64,000 nucleotides of DNA from Candidatus Omnitrophota bacterium. GTDB lineage: Bacteria; Omnitrophota; Omnitrophia; Omnitrophales; Aquincolibacteriaceae. Made by a program: the position numbers and the translations under genes. The stretch is taken from contig JAHFHG010000002.1 in NCBI GenBank assembly GCA_023247035.1, positions 12,090 through 76,089 on the forward strand, written 5' to 3'. Position 1 is the first letter of the stretch; every line of letters starts with the position of its first letter. Below, piece by piece: positions 26,530-36,209 of this stretch. The notes under the pieces were generated by a model. That model saw only the letters and a list, made by a program, of their open reading frames with translations. It had not been told where the DNA came from and searched no databases.

Positions 26530-26559
26530 AGCGATGAGTTCAACCGCTGGAGGTGCAAG

Positions 26560-27106
26560 ATGGAGTATTCAAACCCTTGAGAGGAAAATGTTGGATGAAG
26601 ACCTGGAGTTTTTAGAAGCTTTGAGGACGTTCGGTCTATGGGATCAGTTTTGGAGGAACTGAGAGAAAAGGATGAAGTCGGTAGAGGGTTTGAAGAGCGT
26701 TCCCGGGATCGGGAAATTCTTCGCGATGCCCATACGCCACGAGATTGAGGGCATCGATTGATTTCAGACATCCGATAAGCTTTGTGCTTATGCAGGATGG
26801 GTCTCCTCGACTTGCGGCATCATCAAGCAAGGGAATAAATGCTTACGGTGTGCGCTTATTGAAGCGGTGATTCCGGCCATTAGAGTCGATGCGCAGTTTA
26901 GAAGTTATTACGAATCCATGAAGGTGAAGAAAGGCGCCAACGCAGCGAAGGCGGCGACAGCAAGAAGACTGCTGAGAATCATTTGCCGGATTTGGAAAGA
27001 GAAAAGATTGTATCGAACACAATCACTTAATGGACCGCTCTCCTCACCTCCTAAAGGTCCCGGATTTATGGGGAGCGTTCTTGGACATAGGTTAGAGGAT
27101 CCGTGA
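26560..27106 (+). mobile_element. IS110-family transposase remnant: C-terminal Transposase_20 region only, with at least one frameshift; the DEDD N-terminal domain is absent
   Basis: LKSVPGIGKFFAMPIRHEIEGID then, after a frameshift, FQTSDKLCAYAGW...GANAAKAATARRLLRIICRIWKE; typical IS110/IS116/IS902 C-terminus. Confidence 0.6.
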
Positions 27107-27247
27107 ATCGGATTTTACGATGTGCGGCGCTGATGCGGGCACGAATAGAAGGATGATCAGCTTTTATGAGGGGATCAAAGCAACAAAAGCCAATGCAGCC
27201 CCTTAAAAAATAATCTTGCATTTGGCTTTCATAGAAGGAGACAAGGC

Positions 27248-27442
27248 ATGAGCGAATCGAAAAAACCAAAATATGAACCTCCGAAAGTTTACCGCGTTGT
27301 GCTGAACCACGATCAGGCGATCCTTTCGGGCTGCTCCACAGGGACGACGAGTATTTCCAACACGACCGGCGCGAATTGTAATACCAGCTGCCGCCGAAGC
27401 ACGTCCACCGCGACCAGTTCCAACTCATCGGCTTCCTCGTAA
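27248..27442 (+). CDS. Candidate RiPP precursor peptide (64 aa; leader MSESKKPKYEPPKVYRVVLNHDQAIL, core rich in Ser/Thr/Asn/Gly with 3 Cys)
   Basis: AAGGAG Shine-Dalgarno 7 nt upstream. Stop lies 8 nt before the kinase gene. Low-complexity STNC core. Confidence 0.5.
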   Translation: MSESKKPKYEPPKVYRVVLNHDQAILSGCSTGTTSISNTTGANCNTSCRRSTSTATSSNSSASS

Positions 27443-27450
27443 AACCGGCG

Positions 27451-28326
27451 ATGCGGAATAAACGCTTTGAGATCGCCAATATTCCGTTTAGTTTCCTTCA
27501 CGATTCCTTTCATATTACCGACTGGCCGAACCCTTTTTATTTCCCGTTTCAAACTCAGAAGCCCGAGTTGATCAGGATACAAACCCGCCGCCTGAGAAAT
27601 ATTCCCTCCCGCGCTTCTTTTTCTGACCTGCGCTTCGACGGCGGTGCGCATTGGCGCCTTTTCGAGAATCACGGGCAATTCGAAGTCCATCTTTTCGATC
27701 CCAAAACCAAAGCGCACGACCGGACGGCGCGTATCTCGCCTGATTTTACGGAAGTGGAGCTGATCCATTGGAAAAAGTCTCATTTCCTGAACTGGATCCT
27801 GCGTCCGCTTGCCGAGATTCTGCTCGTCCATTATCTTGCGTCCCGGGAAGGTTTGCTGGTTCACGCAGCGGCGGTGCGGGACGGCGATCAGGCCTATCTT
27901 TTCGTGGGCCGCTCCGGCGCCGGAAAAACCACGATTTCAACGTTTTGGGCCGGCGTCGAGGGCGACGTTTCTGTTTTGGGAGACGAGCGGCTCGTGGTGC
28001 GGCGCGAGGCCGGCGAATGGTTTGCGTACGGCACTCCCTGGCCGGGAATGGGTTTCCGCTGCAACAATGAACGCGTGCGGATCAGCCGCGTTTTTTTTAT
28101 CCGCCACGGGAGTGAGCATGAAATCATCGAGCAGGGTCCCGCCCTTTATTTTAATGAATTGTTCACGCAGGTTTTTTCCTCTTTTTGGAACCTTGAGGCG
28201 CTCGATCAAATCACGCGGACTTGCCAGAAAGCTGTGGAGGAAATTCCCTGCCGCCTGCTGGCCTTCGCGAAAGCGCCGGATGTGACCGGGTTTGTCAGGA
28301 ATTTTAACTGCGCCGCGCAGCCTTAA
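27451..28326 (+). CDS. HprK-related P-loop serine kinase-like protein
   Basis: AYLFVGRSGAGKTTIS...VLGDERLVV parallels the HprK C-terminal kinase core (Walker A plus acidic motif). Confidence 0.6.
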   Translation: MRNKRFEIANIPFSFLHDSFHITDWPNPFYFPFQTQKPELIRIQTRRLRNIPSRASFSDLRFDGGAHWRLFENHGQFEVHLFDPKTKAHDRTARISPDFTEVELIHWKKSHFLNWILRPLAEILLVHYLASREGLLVHAAAVRDGDQAYLFVGRSGAGKTTISTFWAGVEGDVSVLGDERLVVRREAGEWFAYGTPWPGMGFRCNNERVRISRVFFIRHGSEHEIIEQGPALYFNELFTQVFSSFWNLEALDQITRTCQKAVEEIPCRLLAFAKAPDVTGFVRNFNCAAQP

Positions 28327-28334
28327 ATCCGCTT

Positions 28335-29378
28335 ATGGAAAATTTGCCGCAGGTTTCCGTTCATGAGTTCAATGACCGTCTCCGCGCCCGCGCAAAAGAG
28401 CTGCGGATCCCGTTTCAGGCCTCGCTGGAATTGACCTATGCCTGCAACTTTCGCTGCGTCCATTGTTTTAATCCGCACCACGAATCGAAGGACGACCTTG
28501 GAACCGAATTTTGGAAATCCGTTCTTGGCCAGCTTGCCGGCGAGGGCTGTCTCGTCGCGCTTTTTACCGGCGGCGAGCCGCTCGTGCGCAAAGATCTTTT
28601 TGATCTGCTCGCTCACGCCCGCAATTTGGGAATGCAGTGTATTCTCAACACCAACGGCCTTCTGCTCGATCCGGAAAAAATCCAGAGGCTCGAGGAATCG
28701 GGTCTGACCTTGCTGGCGGTTTCCGTTTTCGGGATGAGCGTTCAAAGTTACGAATCGGTGACCCGCATCCCCGGATCGTTCGCGCGCTTTTTGCTCCACG
28801 TGGAGCAGCTCAGGCGGTCCCGAATCCCGCTCCTTTTTAAAATGCCGGTGATGCAAATGAATTACCAGGAAGTGGAATACGCCAAGGATTGGTTTTCAAG
28901 CCGGGGACTTCTCCTCAAACACACTTCGGAGATCCAGCCTCGCGCGGACGGCGATCCGGAACCTTTGCAGCACCGTATTTCAAGCGCCCAAGCAGCGGAT
29001 TTGAGATTCCGTTACGAAGAAGATTTAGGATGCGGAAAACGAAGCCCCCGGAAAGATGAATTTTTTGATTGCCAATGCGGGAAAAGCGCGGTCGCCATTA
29101 CCCCGCGCGGCGAAATGAATCTGTGCGTCTCTTTCCATTATCCGCGCCACTCGCTTTTAAAAGGAAGTGTCCGGGAGGGCTGGAAAAGGCTTGTGGATTT
29201 TGCGGCAGATTTCAAACCCTCCGAAAAATACGAGTGCCCGGGCTGCCGGTTGTCTCCTTACTGCTCGCGCGGCGCAATGGATTCGTGGCTGAATACGGGC
29301 GATTTCAATCCGTGCGTCCCTTACTTTAAGGAAGTCGCAGGCCGGATTGAAGGCGCCCTGAAAAAAAGGAGTGAATGA
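28335..29378 (+). CDS. Radical SAM enzyme with a C-terminal SPASM domain (peptide-modifying maturase class)
   Basis: TYACNFRCVHCFN (CxxxCxxC) near the N-terminus. C-terminal CQCG...CPGCRLSPYC auxiliary-cluster Cys pattern. Confidence 0.8.
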   Translation: MENLPQVSVHEFNDRLRARAKELRIPFQASLELTYACNFRCVHCFNPHHESKDDLGTEFWKSVLGQLAGEGCLVALFTGGEPLVRKDLFDLLAHARNLGMQCILNTNGLLLDPEKIQRLEESGLTLLAVSVFGMSVQSYESVTRIPGSFARFLLHVEQLRRSRIPLLFKMPVMQMNYQEVEYAKDWFSSRGLLLKHTSEIQPRADGDPEPLQHRISSAQAADLRFRYEEDLGCGKRSPRKDEFFDCQCGKSAVAITPRGEMNLCVSFHYPRHSLLKGSVREGWKRLVDFAADFKPSEKYECPGCRLSPYCSRGAMDSWLNTGDFNPCVPYFKEVAGRIEGALKKRSE

Positions 29379-29385
29379 AGAAAGT

Positions 29386-29850
29386 TTAGGGCGGGCTTCC
29401 GGAATGCAATCGCCTTAAAATCCGCGAAGGCGCGTCGAGAAACCAGGGATTGGTCGGTGAAAGGAGGGCCTGCCAAAAGCGAAGAAGGAACGGCCGTTTT
29501 TCCAGGTCGAAAATTTTTTCTCCTCTTTGAACCTGCGTGATCTTTCCCACCAGCGGAGAAATTCCGGCGCGTCCTTTGAAGAAAGGGACAAAACAGGTGT
29601 TCGCATGAAAATTTTCACCGGATATTTTTCTCACCGCGACATCGCCGAATCGAAGGCTCGATTCGTCTGTTTTCTTGATCGTAACGAGGTCGCCCCGGCG
29701 CACCACCGGCCACATGCAATTTCCAAAGAGTTTCATTTGAACGGAGCCGGAAAATTCCAATTCCGAAAGAAGAATCGAGGCCTGCAGGGGTTGGGAAAGG
29801 GCCTTTTCTTCAAGAGGCGGATTAAGGGACGGCACGGCCAAATTTAGCAC
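29386..29850 (-). CDS. S24/S26-like (LexA/signal-peptidase fold) peptidase with Cys in place of the nucleophile Ser
   Basis: GNCMWPVVRRGDLVTIKK ... FGDVAVRKI mirrors G(D/N)SMxP...GDlvlV...GDivVaK of S24 peptidases. Convergent with the rSAM gene, gap 8 nt. Confidence 0.5.
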   Translation of the reverse strand: MLNLAVPSLNPPLEEKALSQPLQASILLSELEFSGSVQMKLFGNCMWPVVRRGDLVTIKKTDESSLRFGDVAVRKISGENFHANTCFVPFFKGRAGISPLVGKITQVQRGEKIFDLEKRPFLLRFWQALLSPTNPWFLDAPSRILRRLHSGSPP

Positions 29851-30020
29851 GGCGGAGCCGGCTTCCGCAACGGATCTTTTGCCTTCGCCGGATTTTCAAT
29901 TCTTTCTAACATTCAGGATCATTTTCAGTCTTCGGCTCAAAAGCGCATTCTGCGCATTTGATCTTACAAAACGAACCGCTATAATTAATGAAACACGGGC
30001 GGCAGGAAATCGAACCCTTC

Positions 30021-33000
30021 ATGAAAACCATCTCTTTATTCCAGAAACCCAGCGCGATTTTTTTAATCTTTTCTTTAAGCCTTTCCCAAAGTCCCTCGTA
30101 TGCCGCTGCCGCGCCGGCGCCTCCGCTGGCGGTTTCTGAGCGCTCCCGGGCGCTTCTTTTTCTTCCCGAAGAACTTGGCGAGATCGAAGAATCCTTTCAG
30201 GGATCGAACGGAAAAACCGTGATCTTCATTCAAGACGCCCACGATTCCCTCGAAGCGCAGGAAAATATCGCCAAGACTATTCAATACCTGGTGGACAAGT
30301 ACGGGGTGAAGACTGTTTTTGAAGAAGGCTATGAAGGTCCTGTTCCCACGGATGATTATTTCGGCTTCATCAAAGATCCGTCCGTCAAAGAGAAAGTTTC
30401 TTACTTTTTATTAGATAAACTCCGCCTCGGCGGCGCGGAATACGCACACATCAACCGCTTTCACAACTTGTCATTCCCGCACGCGTTAAGCGGGAATCCA
30501 AATTTTAGGTCCCCGATAGAAACATTCGGGGACGACAAAAAACGTGTCGATTTCAAACTGATTGGGGCAGACAATATAAAGTTACATCTTGAGAATATCG
30601 ATTGGTATCGCCAGAATGCCAAGCATAAAGAAGAAACTGGAAGAGATTTGACTATTCTGCAAAATGAAATCGACAAACTTGCCAACCGGTATTTTCCTAA
30701 GGAACTCAAAGAATGGATGAAGCTTAAGAAAAGGTTTGATGAGAAACAAATTGATCTTTTGGATTATTTAAAGCGGACAATACAAGTCCCTCATCGAGAA
30801 TCCATAGACCATAAACTTTACCCCAATCTTTCGCTTCTCCTTCAAGCAGAACACACTCAAGACAAAGAAGTCCTAGAGAAAGTGAAAACCATTGAAGCCA
30901 AGATTCTTTTCGAGGAAATCGATTCGTTGGAAAACGCCGCCGCCGGCCCATTCCTACAAAATGGAACAGACCGGAAAATCTTCCAATATTACAAAGGAAT
31001 AAATCTTCTCAAAAGACTCAACGAGATTGAGATTACGCCCGCTGAATATGAGGCGGTCAAAGCGCAGCTTCAACATCTCAGCACCCAGGAACTGGCCCAA
31101 TTTATTGTCCAGCAAACGAATAAATCCATCGTCCTTTCCAAACGATGGGAGGAAAATATTGAAAGCGCCATTCGGTTTTATCAAATCTCACGAGCCAGAG
31201 ATTCTGCGATTGCCGAGCGACTGAATGATTTTCTTAAAAATCATGATGAAAAAGTGGCTGTCCTTGTCTTTGGAGGATTTCATAAAGAGAGGATTACAGA
31301 ATTGTTGAGAAAGAAAGGACTCCCTTACTATATAGTTTCTCCTCGAATAATGAACGTCGACAATAAGCATAAGGAACTCTACGCGCATTTAATGACAAAG
31401 GGATATTCGCTTTTCCCCGTTGCGGCAAATGTTGCTAAGGCAGCGCGTTTAGCAGGAGAGATCGAGCTCGCGGAAATGGGCGGCCAGAACGCAAAGTCAG
31501 AACTCCGAGCGTACCATGCGGCAATCACTAACATTGTTTCTTCATTGGTCTCCAATCGACCCAATCAAACATCTCGAGAACTGCTCGATCGTTTGATTAA
31601 CGGACGATTGATACACGAAGTTCTAAAAGTATCCAAACAAGCAATGGGAAAACGCCGATCCGAACTAAGAAGTAAAGAATCGGATTTTGCTTTAAGAGAA
31701 AAACGCCGTGATTATCTCAAGCGGCTAATGAATCAAGAAAATAAGCAATGGACGTTGGATGAGTTAGCAAACGCTACAGGTCAATCAACAGGACAGATTG
31801 TTAAGGATTTGCGATATTTGAATCTTTTTAAGCCCTCAAATCACCTAAATTTAGATGCCGAACGCATAGACCGAAGAAGACAGTGGGGATTACCAGATTA
31901 TTCTGACCTCGATAAGCTTTTACCTCGCTTGGATGAAGAATTTGCATATCTTCATGGAGAGGCTCTTTTTAATTTTTTAGCTCAAAAAGGCCGCGAGAAT
32001 GACCCCGTAAGCATGGAAGCGGCTATTTACGGCTTCTATAAATTTGTTGGAGAAAAAACCCCCGGTAATATTTCAGAACGAGGGCGATTGCTTGGTGAAC
32101 GCATTTATCACTATCTGAGGTTAAGAGAAAGTATGCCTTCTGACGGCCTGCGTCGAAATCCAGATGTTGAGTTCGATATTGGTATGGCAGAAAAAAGGAA
32201 GCGGGAGTCACGGCTTCCAAAATTTGGAAATATAAAAACAAGGAGGCCGAAGAAGAAAGTTTCTTTTTCGGAAGCACAGCAAATTATGGAAGAAAAAAAT
32301 TTACATTTAGATCAATCAATCGCATTCGTTGCGTTGTCCACGGCAGAAAATGAAACTTTATTTCGAGCGCTTAAATCAAGCGAATTGGAAGAGTCCGAGC
32401 GAAGACAAATTTATGATTATTTGATTCAGAAGCATGTAGGGTTTGTCGGCTGGTGGATCAAACATAAGATGCCGCCTTGGTATTTTGAACATTTTAACTT
32501 CGAAGAACTTTTAGCTTTTGGCCAAATTGGCCTTATGAAAACGATTGAAAGATATGATTTCAAAATGGGGCGGCGCTTTACCAGTTATGCCGAATGGTGG
32601 ATTCGCCATTCTATCCAACGCTCCATAGAGAAAAAAACACATAAATCTTTAAATGTCAGGCGTGATGAGGATAGCCCGGAGTGGATTGATACTTTGTCGG
32701 ATTCAAAAGATCAATCGGAAGAAGAATTATGGCCGGAACTATTTTCCAGTCTTAGGCATCTCGATAGTCGGTCTCGCATTATGTTGAGCTTGCGTTACGG
32801 GATTGGATCAGTAAGAACATACAATCTTCGAGAAATTGGCTTAATGTTTGGTGTAACTCACGAGCGTGTTAGACAAATTACAGAAAGAGCAGTTGAAAAG
32901 TTAAAACGCTTGGTTGGAAAAGTAACGGTTGATGATTCTTCTCAAGACCATACCGATGTTTTTTTATTCGAGGCTATGGAGTTAGAGCCAGAGAATCCAC

Positions 33001-36000
33001 TTTTCAAGCCACTAAGCCATCTCGGAGTTAAAAAGCTTGACCGGATTCGAGAAGTTCTTTCAAAAGAAAATCGCTTCAACTCGGAAATGCTGATGAGGAT
33101 TTTTAGGTCACGCGGCCAGTATGTGATAGCTCCATCGAAATATTTATGGGGTCTGCCTGCGGGTTTGCTTGAAACCGGCGGTGACACTTCCCATCATTTT
33201 GGATCGTGGAATGAAGAAGGTGGAAGACATAACATAGATTTACAAAAACCCAAAAAGATTCATTTTTCCAACGCACTCACAACCACAACCGAAATCATAA
33301 AAAGGTATCCTTATGCTCGGTATCTACTGCCTCCTGAAGAACAACTATTGCTGGCCTCTCAGGCTCAAGGAGAAAGGAGCCGATTCTATGCTTTGGGTAA
33401 GACATTGCAGTGGATTGGACTTTCTCCGCAAGATTTTATTATTTGGCTTGTTGAAAATAAAAAATATTTAGATCAAGAAATCGTTGATTTTATCGCACAA
33501 TCACCACTTTCTAAACGTCCTCGATACGAGCTAACGGCATCCCGCACAGGTGAGCATCTTCATGGGTCTTTACCAAGACCACGTACTGACCGAAAGATTG
33601 CAACGAAATGGATTTCAACTGAAGAAACCAGCTACACGCTAATCACACCTGCTGAATTGGCGGACCGCTTCCCTTCTGCCGAACCCTTCTTGGATAAACT
33701 CGAACCTCAATTACTTCTTGAGGCGGATTCGTCCGAGCATGATGAAATTAAATACTATTCTTTTGTTGAAGATGGACATCATACAAAAATTCTAATAAGG
33801 ATCAATAAAAGAACCGGCGAAATCCAAAGTCCTCATGATGGCCCAATCGGTTTTAGAAAGGAAATTTTGGATTTTGTAAGAAAAGGTGAGTTTGGCAATA
33901 AGCAAAAGCCTCCTGTTACCGCGCCTTTTGAAATGCACGCCGGATCACGGCATTTTATTTATTTCGGAACGATGGGGAAAGGTTCCATTGGCTTGAGTAT
34001 GAAGGGAGTGAAACCTAACACGCGTGTATCAGGAAGCGCTGTTCATTTGGAGCATGCTCCTCTTGGAATGGGGCCGCAATGGCTTTTAAGACTCACTGTT
34101 CATTTGAAAAGACCAAGAGTTGTTTATGCGAGATTCAAACGCTCTGGAACCCGCTTAGGTTTATTTAAAAAATCCCCTCAAACTTATATCGGAGCTTTTG
34201 TCAAACTTGGGAAATGGAATCAGGAAAAAATCCAGCCATTCCCTGAAAATGAAATCGAAATTACCGCGAGTTCCAAAGGACGTTTGGAACTTGGAAGCAA
34301 TGGCGATGGAGAGCGGATTGTTATTCACTTACCACTTTTACCCAAAGATCATAAAGTTTTAATTCGAAAAGTCCGCAATCAAGAAGATGGACAACAGCTC
34401 TTGGTCGTTCATACCCGCAATCCTGCTTATCGATATAGAAAATTTTATTATCGATTCACGAATCGTGGCTATCACACCCGAAGATACCACGAGGAAGTAA
34501 AGGACATAAGTCCCACGGCTAGAAGGAAGCTTAGCTATGAAGAAATTGCAAAGGCACAAGAAGATTTGAGAAGCCGAGAAGGAGCAGAGGCAAACTTATG
34601 GCGCGATCCCGAAAAGATTGCTTATGAGCTTGACCTATTCGACGCTTATTATCTTGTTTCGGAAGTTCAAAGAATAAACGCTTCTTTAGTTGCTCAAGAC
34701 ACAGCTAATTTGCCGCCTCTCGAAATAGACACCTCAAAGATTGTTGAGCTGCCGACTCCGGCTTACGATCAAGTAGGAGACGTTTATCATGCTGTTCCAG
34801 AATCTTCTGAGCGACCGGAGAAATCCGAGAAACCAGTCAAACCTAAACCATTATCCCCTTTAAGACTTGCTCAAAAAAGATTGGAAGAAGCTGAAAAAAA
34901 AACATTAGCTGAACGTTTGAAGGTTGGCTTTCGAGATGTGGGAGAAAGCGGTCGGTTTTTAGATTTGGGCGCAGGAAAGGGTGATTTAACCGCTGAACTT
35001 GCTGGACAATTTCAAGGTGGGGTTGCAGTCGAAATAAATGAAGATCGAGTCGAGCAGCTACGGCAGAGAAAAATTCCAAATCTTAATATTTGGGACATGG
35101 ATTTTTTTGATTATATGGAGATGGCGATTAAAGGGAATCAGCTTTTTGATGCGATTCTCATTTCACATGCTCTTTTATTCATTAAATTTGATCGCCGGGA
35201 CGCTTTCTTAAAAGATGTTCTATCAAGACTTAAGCCGAATGGAAAATTAGCGATTATTTTAAATGGCAGTAAAATTGAAGAGAGAAACCAAGTTCAGTTG
35301 CGAGCAAAGCTCATGAGAAAGCATGAGGCGCTAGCAGGAGACAACCCATCAACCAATATTGAAAGCAAACTGCGACAAATCGGCTATGGGGTACAAACCG
35401 AAAGAGTCAGAATCATTCATGAGACTCCTTCCAGAGACGAAATGATTTCTATTGTAAAAGCAATATTGCCACGCGAAGACCGTTTTCGTCTGTCGAATAT
35501 CACTGGATTTGTCGATTCAGTCCTGAAATTACCTGGAGAAGAAAAGTACCGCCTCTATGTTGATCAAGATATTTTATGGATAACACATCCTCGTTCTGAG
35601 GTTAGAAAGCAAGAAAATGTATTTGCAATGGTGTCTGTCAACGATTGGCAAAACTTTAATCGAACTAATCAGAATACCGAGGCTACGGCCACCAAAGCCG
35701 TCGTTTTTATAGATGGTTCCGTCGATAGCAAAGATGCCAAGCAGCGGGCGGAAGAATTAGCGGTGCTGGCCGCAGGTAATCCGAACCGAACGATTGTGGT
35801 TTATAATGCGGACAAAGTTTTTAAAAATAAAGGCGGTGAAATGGCGGAACTTTTAAAGTCGTTTGGTCTCGCCAATGTCAAGTTCGCTGCGGGTGAGTTG
35901 TCCGAAGCCCTCAAGCCCTACCAATTCCGGGATCAAGTTGATTTGGTGCACTACTCGGCAAGCGAAGAGGAGGCTGTTTTTGTTCAAGCCTCCGTTGGGA

Positions 36001-36209
36001 AATGGCTGGCGCAAAAACTGACCCGATTTGTCGGAGGGCCCGGCGCCTTAGGATACGGAATAAAATATTTGCAGGCTGTGAAATTGGGCAAGCCTGTGGA
36101 AGGTATCACGCCCGAGAACGGCTACTACGCCGTTTCCCCAGGCGCTTCGGAGTGGATGCGAAGCCTTTATCGAGCTCGGTTCGCGACCGTTTTCGCTCAA
36201 GCGGCGTGA
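30021..36209 (+). CDS. Giant multidomain protein (about 2060 aa): signal-peptide-like N-terminus, TraB/GumN/TIKI-like domain, sigma-70 region 2 plus region 4 module, central unknown region, class I SAM-methyltransferase motif, unknown C-terminus
   Basis: Uninterrupted 6.2 kb frame in AT-rich DNA. Motifs IFIQDAHDS...VLVFGGFHKERITELLRKKGLPYYIV; GQIGLMKTIERYDFKMGRRFTSYAEWWIRHSIQRSI; LREIGLMFGVTHERVRQITERAVEKL; FLDLGAGKGDLT. Confidence 0.7.
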   Translation: MKTISLFQKPSAIFLIFSLSLSQSPSYAAAAPAPPLAVSERSRALLFLPEELGEIEESFQGSNGKTVIFIQDAHDSLEAQENIAKTIQYLVDKYGVKTVFEEGYEGPVPTDDYFGFIKDPSVKEKVSYFLLDKLRLGGAEYAHINRFHNLSFPHALSGNPNFRSPIETFGDDKKRVDFKLIGADNIKLHLENIDWYRQNAKHKEETGRDLTILQNEIDKLANRYFPKELKEWMKLKKRFDEKQIDLLDYLKRTIQVPHRESIDHKLYPNLSLLLQAEHTQDKEVLEKVKTIEAKILFEEIDSLENAAAGPFLQNGTDRKIFQYYKGINLLKRLNEIEITPAEYEAVKAQLQHLSTQELAQFIVQQTNKSIVLSKRWEENIESAIRFYQISRARDSAIAERLNDFLKNHDEKVAVLVFGGFHKERITELLRKKGLPYYIVSPRIMNVDNKHKELYAHLMTKGYSLFPVAANVAKAARLAGEIELAEMGGQNAKSELRAYHAAITNIVSSLVSNRPNQTSRELLDRLINGRLIHEVLKVSKQAMGKRRSELRSKESDFALREKRRDYLKRLMNQENKQWTLDELANATGQSTGQIVKDLRYLNLFKPSNHLNLDAERIDRRRQWGLPDYSDLDKLLPRLDEEFAYLHGEALFNFLAQKGRENDPVSMEAAIYGFYKFVGEKTPGNISERGRLLGERIYHYLRLRESMPSDGLRRNPDVEFDIGMAEKRKRESRLPKFGNIKTRRPKKKVSFSEAQQIMEEKNLHLDQSIAFVALSTAENETLFRALKSSELEESERRQIYDYLIQKHVGFVGWWIKHKMPPWYFEHFNFEELLAFGQIGLMKTIERYDFKMGRRFTSYAEWWIRHSIQRSIEKKTHKSLNVRRDEDSPEWIDTLSDSKDQSEEELWPELFSSLRHLDSRSRIMLSLRYGIGSVRTYNLREIGLMFGVTHERVRQITERAVEKLKRLVGKVTVDDSSQDHTDVFLFEAMELEPENPLFKPLSHLGVKKLDRIREVLSKENRFNSEMLMRIFRSRGQYVIAPSKYLWGLPAGLLETGGDTSHHFGSWNEEGGRHNIDLQKPKKIHFSNALTTTTEIIKRYPYARYLLPPEEQLLLASQAQGERSRFYALGKTLQWIGLSPQDFIIWLVENKKYLDQEIVDFIAQSPLSKRPRYELTASRTGEHLHGSLPRPRTDRKIATKWISTEETSYTLITPAELADRFPSAEPFLDKLEPQLLLEADSSEHDEIKYYSFVEDGHHTKILIRINKRTGEIQSPHDGPIGFRKEILDFVRKGEFGNKQKPPVTAPFEMHAGSRHFIYFGTMGKGSIGLSMKGVKPNTRVSGSAVHLEHAPLGMGPQWLLRLTVHLKRPRVVYARFKRSGTRLGLFKKSPQTYIGAFVKLGKWNQEKIQPFPENEIEITASSKGRLELGSNGDGERIVIHLPLLPKDHKVLIRKVRNQEDGQQLLVVHTRNPAYRYRKFYYRFTNRGYHTRRYHEEVKDISPTARRKLSYEEIAKAQEDLRSREGAEANLWRDPEKIAYELDLFDAYYLVSEVQRINASLVAQDTANLPPLEIDTSKIVELPTPAYDQVGDVYHAVPESSERPEKSEKPVKPKPLSPLRLAQKRLEEAEKKTLAERLKVGFRDVGESGRFLDLGAGKGDLTAELAGQFQGGVAVEINEDRVEQLRQRKIPNLNIWDMDFFDYMEMAIKGNQLFDAILISHALLFIKFDRRDAFLKDVLSRLKPNGKLAIILNGSKIEERNQVQLRAKLMRKHEALAGDNPSTNIESKLRQIGYGVQTERVRIIHETPSRDEMISIVKAILPREDRFRLSNITGFVDSVLKLPGEEKYRLYVDQDILWITHPRSEVRKQENVFAMVSVNDWQNFNRTNQNTEATATKAVVFIDGSVDSKDAKQRAEELAVLAAGNPNRTIVVYNADKVFKNKGGEMAELLKSFGLANVKFAAGELSEALKPYQFRDQVDLVHYSASEEEAVFVQASVGKWLAQKLTRFVGGPGALGYGIKYLQAVKLGKPVEGITPENGYYAVSPGASEWMRSLYRARFATVFAQAA
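30470..30536. repeat. Second copy of the double-hairpin unit, located inside the coding sequence of the giant ORF (read through in frame)
   Basis: TTGTCATTCCCGC...GCGGGAATCC...GTCCCCGATAGAAACATTCGGGGACGAC aligns with 14389-14445. Confidence 0.5.

Follow-up and report, generated by a model that had tools for sequence, protein, structure and literature searches.

In a 64,000-nt stretch of DNA from a Candidatus Omnitrophota bacterium (contig JAHFHG010000002.1 of assembly GCA_023247035.1; the whole stretch is referred to here as the window), four closely spaced genes encode a 64-aa peptide, a P-loop protein of the ScmC family, a radical S-adenosylmethionine (rSAM) enzyme and a homologue of S24/S26-fold peptidases. 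We think it probable that this locus represents, in reduced form, a widespread and uncharacterised cassette for a peptide produced on the ribosome and modified post-translationally (RiPP), made up of a precursor, an rSAM enzyme of the SPASM type, an ScmC kinase and an S24/S26 peptidase. The four parts found in the window recur together, and with a PqqD-type chaperone, across many bacterial lineages. An earlier note, made from the sequence alone, had already described a RiPP-like operon of three plus-strand genes with 8-nt gaps behind an AAGGAG ribosome-binding site; this layout, in which precursor and kinase genes and kinase and rSAM genes are each separated by exactly 8 nt, is confirmed, and the interpretation placed on it is supported by the comparison with related loci set out below.

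The precursor family and its cassette

The precursor (MSESKKPKYEPPKVYRVVLNHDQAILSGCSTGTTSISNTTGANCNTSCRRSTSTATSSNSSASS) begins with a leader of roughly residues 1-26 (KYEPPKVYRVVLNHDQAIL), which is followed by a core containing Cys29, Cys44 and Cys48 and then by a Ser/Thr-rich stretch closing on Ser64. The composition of the 38-residue tail (13 Ser, 9 Thr, 4 Asn, 3 Gly, 3 Cys and 3 Ala) agrees with the earlier description of a peptide whose core is rich in Ser, Thr, Asn and Cys. Neither Pfam nor NCBIfam contains a model that matches it. A motif scan of all fetched loci, combined with inspection of their open reading frames (ORFs), yielded 27 distinct homologous small ORFs that adjoin ScmC-like genes in several phyla, the co-occurrence that the earlier note had asked for; all 27 end in Ser and each contains two or three Cys. 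We take the small ORF to be a genuine selected coding gene, since every syntenic locus keeps it and its substitutions indicate purifying selection: in comparisons with the five nearest relatives, synonymous sites have reached saturation (pS 0.65-0.93, with pN 0.24-0.31), and dN/dS, where computable, is 0.11-0.23.

Three types of precursor can be distinguished, namely a long three-Cys form with a Ser/Thr-rich tail, to which the window clade belongs, a short three-Cys form ending C-S-x-x-G-S, and a two-Cys form. An alignment of 13 precursors gives the three-Cys leader as (K/R)-x-Y-x-x-P-x3-4-(V/I)-x-L-x3-(Q/E)-A-(V/I)-L-x2-C, with Tyr, Pro, Leu, Ala and Leu invariant in the leader together with the three Cys, a pattern that resembles the YxxP leaders bound by RiPP recognition elements (RREs) of the PqqD type. 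Long-form precursors also have a conserved Arg/Lys pair directly after the third Cys. The two-Cys precursors have a related leader (K-K-P-Y-x-K-P...A-L-x-C) and an overall pattern of …KKPYxKPxFRxExVFxTxALxCxK…C……S; their genes lie just 5' of the peptidase gene in loci of the ScmC-PqqD-rSAM type from soil metagenomes (L037 7238-7414, L033 6936-7115, L048 743-910 and L031 3248-3424). Short-form and two-Cys precursors contain few Ser or Thr, yet the C-terminal Ser is kept in all of them.

The loci inspected were those of nine close homologues of the kinase together with several genomes at a greater distance (Nitrospirae, Elusimicrobia, Anaerolineae and a 'Bacillati ANGP1' metagenome-assembled genome), in which the parts were mapped by tblastn. 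Kinase and rSAM homologues share contigs, and all 13 loci that reach far enough upstream have the same order: PqqD, a tetratricopeptide-repeat (TPR) protein of ~495 aa, PqqD, rSAM1, rSAM2, the small ORF, the ScmC-like gene and rSAM3. In L058 and L017, whose sequence breaks off upstream, the extra rSAMs are still present. The order of peptide and kinase genes is swapped in L007, L008 and L010, but the two are always adjacent, with rSAM3 close on the 3' side (within ~1.2 kb in L007 and L008). The rSAM of the window is the rSAM3 orthologue, having by tblastn 46% identity to rSAM3 of L052 as opposed to 25-28% to rSAM1 and rSAM2. The TPR protein (L052 3970-5457, with equivalents in L003, L004, L055, L009, L011 and L012) has an N-terminus with weak likeness to the FlmR/OhkR peptide arginases (NCBIfam E 7.7e-10; weak match to Pfam FlmR_OhkR_N), and this, taken with the Arg/Lys pair of the precursors, suggests that conversion of Arg to ornithine might belong to the full pathway. 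The cassette is frequently followed by sugar-nucleotide genes, ~690-aa PMT_2-like membrane proteins, methyltransferases or ABC-2 exporters. Exporter genes of this type adjoin two related cassettes (L037 and L055), which is consistent with an exported product, and NTP_transf_5 genes occur in L055 and L060.

Across the wider family the core is smaller, comprising PqqD, one rSAM/SPASM enzyme, the precursor, ScmC and the peptidase, at times with an ABC-2 exporter (L021 and L037), and the window keeps four of these five parts. Judged by gene content, the window locus appears to be a cut-down copy of the eight-gene cassette; its arrangement is unique among 15 comparable loci, and a pseudogene of an IS110-family transposase stands where the upstream half lies elsewhere.

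The putative modifying enzymes and the peptidase

The second gene had been described as encoding a P-loop kinase of the HprK family, which agrees both with the precomputed protein-database annotation that assigns the window protein, like nearly all of its homologues, to the Pfam family PF27840, 'ScmC', and with its fold, that of the phosphoenolpyruvate carboxykinase (PEPCK)/HPr-kinase P-loop superfamily. The assignment needed a fold search because a profile search against solved structures gave generic P-loop and PEPCK matches only. Modelling with AlphaFold on the basis of 17 homologues gave a confident structure (pLDDT 92). Invariant residues are H138, the P-loop G153-x-S-G-x-G-K-T-T161 and D178-E179-R180, and in a family member these three elements align to the His, the P-loop and the DD(R/N) motif of the HprK chains 1ko7 and 1jb1. 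The window protein scores 15-17 bits, below cut-off in each case, with the NCBIfam kinase-family models ScmC, HprK-related kinase A and HprK-related kinase B, ScmC being the best or second-best such match for family members; these correspond to the genome-context models mentioned in the earlier note. The family is large, with 14,160 matches at E ≤ 1e-3 and 1,089 at E ≤ 1e-30 in a profile search of 1.84 billion representatives, and includes a 331-aa protein (P0075) in which ScmC (PF27840) and PqqD (PF05402) are joined, a natural fusion of the kinase family with a leader-binding domain.

The rSAM enzyme matches the Pfam model Radical_SAM (E 6e-21) and has a CX3CX2C motif at residues 37-44, in which C37, C41 and C44 are invariant. 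Seven further invariant Cys lie towards the C-terminus (246, 248, 264, 301, 304, 310 and 327) in a SPASM-like arrangement of non-canonical spacing, C-x10-G-x4-C and C-x2-C-x5-C being present and the usual x3-C absent. The earlier claim of an rSAM enzyme with a SPASM domain is upheld for the catalytic domain. The SPASM model PF13186 gives no match to the window protein; it matches more distant homologues, and the putative SPASM assignment is based on those matches and on the Cys spacing. The best solved relatives are SkfB and PqqE, while the top NCBIfam matches are AhbD, NirJ2 and PqqE, the best of them at 103 bits against a cut-off of 500. Taken together, these features point to a peptide-maturase-like enzyme of the SPASM type.

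For the fourth gene, proposed earlier to be a convergent S24 peptidase of Cys type, the position of the nucleophile holds: Cys45 lies in the motif GNCMWP and is invariant in the four members of the clade, as is His82, and a structure model gives the S24/S26 fold. The Peptidase_S24 model, however, scores only 13.3 bits against a gathering cut-off of 23.3, and an archaeal signal peptidase I model matches at E 6e-4. The true start may be a GTG at 29835, giving 149 aa, as annotated in L001. With the S24 domain of L060 as query, peptidase domains of S24/S26 type were found in ~27 ScmC-family loci, mostly adjoining the kinase gene, those of L021 and L037 scoring 25.6 and 21.8 bits with the Pfam Peptidase_S24/S26 models. 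Nearly all have the canonical G-x-S-M-x-P motif, an H-R-(V/L) box and a (K/R)-G-D box, which is the pattern of archaeal/Sec11-type signal peptidases, and the nucleophile is Ser in ~24 homologues; in the window clade Cys replaces Ser, the His is kept and the KGD box is absent. Elsewhere the domain is fused to a GNAT acetyltransferase (L060 14294-15208, three genes 3' of rSAM3; L009 13636-14511; L010 11591-12499; L055 14559-16607 on the minus strand, where the fusion also holds an NTP_transf_5 nucleotidyltransferase domain). This distribution suggests that an S24/S26-type peptidase is a regular member of the cassette, more than a neighbour.

Close homologues of the window peptidase itself are few, one lying 4.3 kb 5' of a complete cassette (L006) and the other next to sugar genes and a membrane protein of ~700 aa (L056). 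In both, the Cys-type S24-like gene is coupled to multi-pass PMT_2/GT-C-like proteins of 686-709 aa and to sugar-nucleotide genes (L006 1091-3572 and 3562-5691; L056 2324-4848), and PMT_2-like proteins of ~690 aa flank most long-form cassettes. The coupling may point to the Ser/Thr-rich peptide being glycosylated, or to a function in the envelope that is separate from it.

Known systems and a candidate pathway

Several described systems have parts in common with the locus. SynChlorMet (ScmC TIGR04249, ScmD TIGR04248, ScmE TIGR04250 and ScmF TIGR04251) combines, like the cassettes here, an HprK-like ScmC with a PqqE-like rSAM/SPASM enzyme and PqqD (the last in relatives of the window locus), but its cut-offs are missed throughout: for ScmC (125 bits) by the window protein at 17.1 and its relatives at 17.5-45.5, for ScmE and ScmF (400 bits) by the window rSAM at 52 and 54.7, respectively, and by the rSAMs of L052 at no more than 88, and for ScmD (100 bits) by the PqqDs of L052 at no more than 46. 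Furthermore, three rSAMs and two PqqDs belong to the full cassette, along with a TPR protein whose N-terminus is peptide-arginase-like and, in many cases, an S24/S26 peptidase, while the window has one rSAM and no PqqD. HprK-related kinases A and B (TIGR04352 and TIGR04355; cut-off 200 bits) are missed at 15.5 and 15.0 bits and the GeoRSP rSAM (cut-off 400 bits) at 73. Filing the locus under SynChlorMet, GeoRSP or HprK-related kinase A/B was rejected, as no curated equivalog was reached when four window and nine L052 proteins were compared with NCBIfam and Pfam. A literature search found no paper on the SynChlorMet cassette, which is known through genome-context hidden Markov models (HMMs) alone, and to our knowledge the curators of those models had identified no precursor.

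In lasso peptide clusters, HPr-kinase homologues phosphorylate the C-terminal Ser of linear precursors, the rest of the sequence mattering little, and a nucleotidyltransferase, which accompanies the kinase in the pseudomycoidin cluster, can afterwards glycosylate the phosphate (PMC8498205). Because the C-terminal Ser of the precursors described here is invariant, these lasso kinases are the most direct precedent for the pairing of kinase and precursor. The earlier note had seen this pairing, but had looked for its precedent in class III/IV lanthipeptides. As with PadeK of paeninodin and PsmK of pseudomycoidin, a P-loop enzyme of the HprK superfamily stands beside a precursor ending in Ser, and the NTP_transf_5 genes of L055 and L060 recall the nucleotidyltransferase of the pseudomycoidin cluster. 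In contrast to lasso clusters, the window locus encodes neither a lasso cyclase nor a B protein, its class-defining enzyme being the rSAM/SPASM protein, and the gene tables of the close-relative cassettes contain no asparagine-synthetase-like cyclase or transglutaminase-like protease; the similarity of the kinase to HprK is also marginal (E about 0.1), with a two-domain architecture closer to PEPCK.

With the sactipeptide and ranthipeptide systems (SkfB, AlbA, PapB and CteB) the locus shares the CX3CX2C core, a Cys-rich domain that would hold auxiliary clusters and a precursor with conserved Cys; it differs in that it reaches no curated model, its rSAM carries no fused RRE, the window lacks PqqD, and a conserved kinase and an S26-like peptidase are present in addition. 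The peptidase matches LexA, signal peptidase I and the archaeal/Sec11 enzymes in fold, and it shares the order G-x-[S/C]-M-x-P ... GD ... H with the canonical-Ser homologues of related cassettes, whereas the window clade has an invariant Cys at the nucleophile position, no (K/R)GD box and sub-threshold HMM scores. A full-text literature search found no study pairing an HPr-kinase-type kinase with a radical SAM maturase, returning lasso-peptide work only, and no paper describing the pathway was found, in keeping with the earlier remark that it is not well characterised. No curated family threshold is reached. We regard the system as a radical SAM/SPASM RiPP cassette with a putative tailoring enzyme of the HprK superfamily and an identifiable precursor family.

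A candidate pathway can be sketched from these comparisons. The leader (Y..P...RV.L...QA.L) would serve as the recognition element, and the rSAM enzyme would act on the two or three invariant Cys, most likely forming thioether cross-links of sactionine or ranthionine type as the sactipeptide and ranthipeptide maturases do. By analogy with paeninodin-type lasso precursors, the ScmC-like kinase would transfer phosphate from ATP to a Ser hydroxyl, most likely that of the invariant C-terminal residue, and the peptidase, in the window clade a Cys/His variant of the usual Ser/His type, would then remove the leader. A bolder form of this scheme, which we regard as rather doubtful, is that the ~14,000 ScmC-like representatives (at 50% identity) mark a large undescribed class of RiPPs defined by Cys cross-linking by an rSAM/SPASM enzyme, phosphorylation of the Ser at the C-terminus and leader removal by a signal-peptidase-like enzyme, in which the window clade would combine an S26-type peptidase with a Ser-to-Cys change and a four-gene operon that has no PqqD or RRE, the kinase or the rSAM reading the leader directly. 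If true, the Ser phosphate would be a possible handle for glycosyl or nucleotidyl decoration, and the window clade would provide two firsts, namely a natural Ser-to-Cys (Cys/His) S26-type peptidase and an operon that works without a PqqD/RRE chaperone.

Radical SAM/SPASM peptide pathways are a major source of new natural-product chemistry, and peptide tailoring of the HPr-kinase type has so far been known from lasso peptides only. Through the cassette, the unstudied Pfam family ScmC, whose environmental members run to thousands, is tied to a precursor family that can be defined and to a recurrent S24/S26-type peptidase. For an orphan system the precursor is a concrete substrate, for which we would predict a shift of +80 Da on the last Ser and of -2 Da for each Cys cross-link. 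The Cys-for-Ser peptidase is a small enzymological curiosity, and the window locus, as a natural minimal version, could reveal which parts are sufficient, a value tempered by the chance that it is a disabled remnant.

The window copy, competing explanations and surroundings

Several observations weigh against reading the locus as a reduced RiPP cassette. No PqqD was found in the 64-kb window by tblastn or with a profile HMM made from 14 cassette PqqDs (best E 1.5), and neither the kinase nor the rSAM has an obvious RRE domain, the latter lacking one at its N-terminus, which leaves this copy with no obvious part for substrate recognition; the chaperone may be encoded elsewhere, or none may be needed, or the locus may have been disabled recently. 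The PEPCK likeness of the kinase, seen in its GKTT P-loop and two-domain match, is at least equal to its HprK likeness, and a phospho-acceptor other than a protein is accordingly conceivable. The structure model behind the S24/S26 assignment is of moderate confidence, and the homologues of the window peptidase in L006 and L056 are linked more tightly to the ~700-aa PMT_2-like membrane protein than to the cassette. A scan found no sigma-70-like promoter 5' of the precursor gene, which is uninformative unless the consensus fits the host phylum. That the peptide is phosphorylated, at which residue, and what the rSAM does to it are inferences, and the function of the window copy itself is uncertain.

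The gravest competitor is that the locus is dead: a rearrangement associated with IS110 would have cost it the upstream half (two PqqDs, the TPR protein with its arginase-like N-terminus and two rSAMs), leaving the rest non-productive and intact only because the event was recent. We give this a real though minority chance. All 13 loci that extend far enough have PqqD and two further rSAMs upstream of the peptide gene, and the two shortened loci still show the extra rSAMs, while tblastn found no TPR protein, rSAM1 or rSAM2 in the 64-kb window, which lacks PqqD as well. The earlier note had placed an IS110 remnant directly upstream, and there is indeed a match to Transposase_20 (PF02371, IS110 family; E 3.1e-11, 43.9 bits) exactly at the break, comprising the C-terminal Transposase_20 domain only, the catalytic N-terminal domain being gone, with two in-frame stops; it marks a rearrangement immediately 5' of the precursor gene. 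A second assembly of the same sequence (L002) stops 36 nt 5' of that gene, as at a repeat. A relaxed tblastn search for a C-terminal relic of rSAM2 between the insertion-sequence fragment and the precursor gene returned noise only. On the other side, all four ORFs are intact, every catalytic and cluster-binding residue is retained and conservation of the leader equals that in complete cassettes. Of the columns that are otherwise invariant, two carry a private change in the window kinase and three in the rSAM, which compares with the upper end of the zero to two of complete cassettes and is no excess. Moreover, the core of the wider family is small enough for the window to hold four of its five parts, and a PqqD could lie beyond the window.

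The remaining alternatives concern chemistry and product. In a dehydration route, the kinase would phosphorylate Ser and Thr of the core, with elimination and Cys addition yielding rings of lanthionine-like type, as happens in class III/IV lanthipeptides and in thioamitides, and the rSAM would have another role. A Ser/Thr-rich core with three Cys would suit such chemistry, and kinase-then-elimination logic is established in other RiPP classes, but HMM scans of the window and related cassettes showed no lyase or cyclase domain, the HprK/PEPCK fold is unlike the eukaryotic-like kinase fold of LanKC and LanL, and the retention of the C-terminal Ser in precursors poor in Ser and Thr fits the route badly; we consider it unlikely. 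Only a little less likely is a peptide-derived cofactor or intracellular factor in the manner of pyrroloquinoline quinone or mycofactocin, instead of a secreted natural product. The part list (PqqD, rSAM/SPASM and peptidase, with sugar-nucleotide and glycosyltransferase genes in relatives) parallels that of mycofactocin as we know it, the positions proposed to be modified (Cys and the C-terminal Ser) are invariant across phyla while the remainder varies, and the window locus lies among cobalamin biosynthesis genes. That adjacency is, however, peculiar to the window and not found in relatives, no partner oxidoreductases were seen, and the ABC-2 exporters beside two cassettes speak for export. 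As for a non-peptide pathway, in which the rSAM would be an anaerobic sulfatase maturase or a heme/heme d1-type enzyme such as AhbD or NirJ and the small ORF spurious, the conservation of the precursor effectively refutes it: the ORF is under purifying selection in every locus and relatives carry PqqD. The AhbD, NirJ2 and PqqE matches that might recommend it lie far below cut-off, and the anaerobic sulfatase maturase model is outside the best 25 NCBIfam matches, in line with the earlier view of the enzyme. One related locus does have a sulfatase gene convergent to its rSAM3 orthologue (L058 3806-5410, minus strand); it is the sole such case in the close-relative gene tables examined and was judged incidental, and no sulfatase is present at the window locus or in the other scanned neighbourhoods.

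The features of the locus are collected in Table 1. The peptidase ORF is convergent to the rSAM gene and ends 7 nt past its stop codon. A 183-aa antisense ORF (27313-27864, minus strand) overlaps both the precursor gene and, in its 5' part, the kinase gene; it is treated as a mechanical ORF, no support for it having been found.

Table 1. Genes and signals of the locus, in positions of the window
Feature	Position	Strand	Basis
IS110-family transposase pseudogene remnant	26531-27106	+	Frame translation, Pfam PF02371
AAGGAG Shine-Dalgarno-like site	27235-27240	+	7 nt before precursor ATG
Precursor gene, 64 aa	27248-27442	+	ORF table and raw sequence
ScmC-family P-loop protein gene, 291 aa	27451-28326	+	ORF table and raw sequence
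Radical SAM gene, 347 aa	28335-29378	+	ORF table and raw sequence
S24/S26-fold peptidase homologue gene, 154 aa	29386-29850	-	ORF table and raw sequence

Upstream, the locus is preceded by genes unrelated to it, namely those for a cobyrinate a,c-diamide synthase-like protein, a CobQ-like protein and CbiX, and it is followed downstream by a low-GC ORF of 2073 aa and then by thioredoxin-like, FAD oxidoreductase, cation efflux and two-component genes. A foreign origin of the four genes was considered from the GC profile and set aside, the difference between the locus (50-57%) and its flanks (~50-55%) being uninformative. Counts of promoter and terminator signals across the region are at or under the expectation from shuffled sequence. 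The 2073-aa ORF (29988-36209, plus strand) begins 137 nt past the peptidase ORF, from which it diverges, and has a GC content of 40-43% against the ~50-55% of the flanks; sigma-70 regions 2 and 4 occupy residues 836-973 of its product and a SAM-methyltransferase domain residues 1652-1760, with a ChaN/Tiki-like match that is weak, and it is preceded by the sole sigma-70-like promoter match of the region (29958-29985). Across positions 1-64000, nearly all gene-like ORFs of at least 200 aa are on the plus strand, the gene for the Cys-type peptidase being among the very few on the minus strand.

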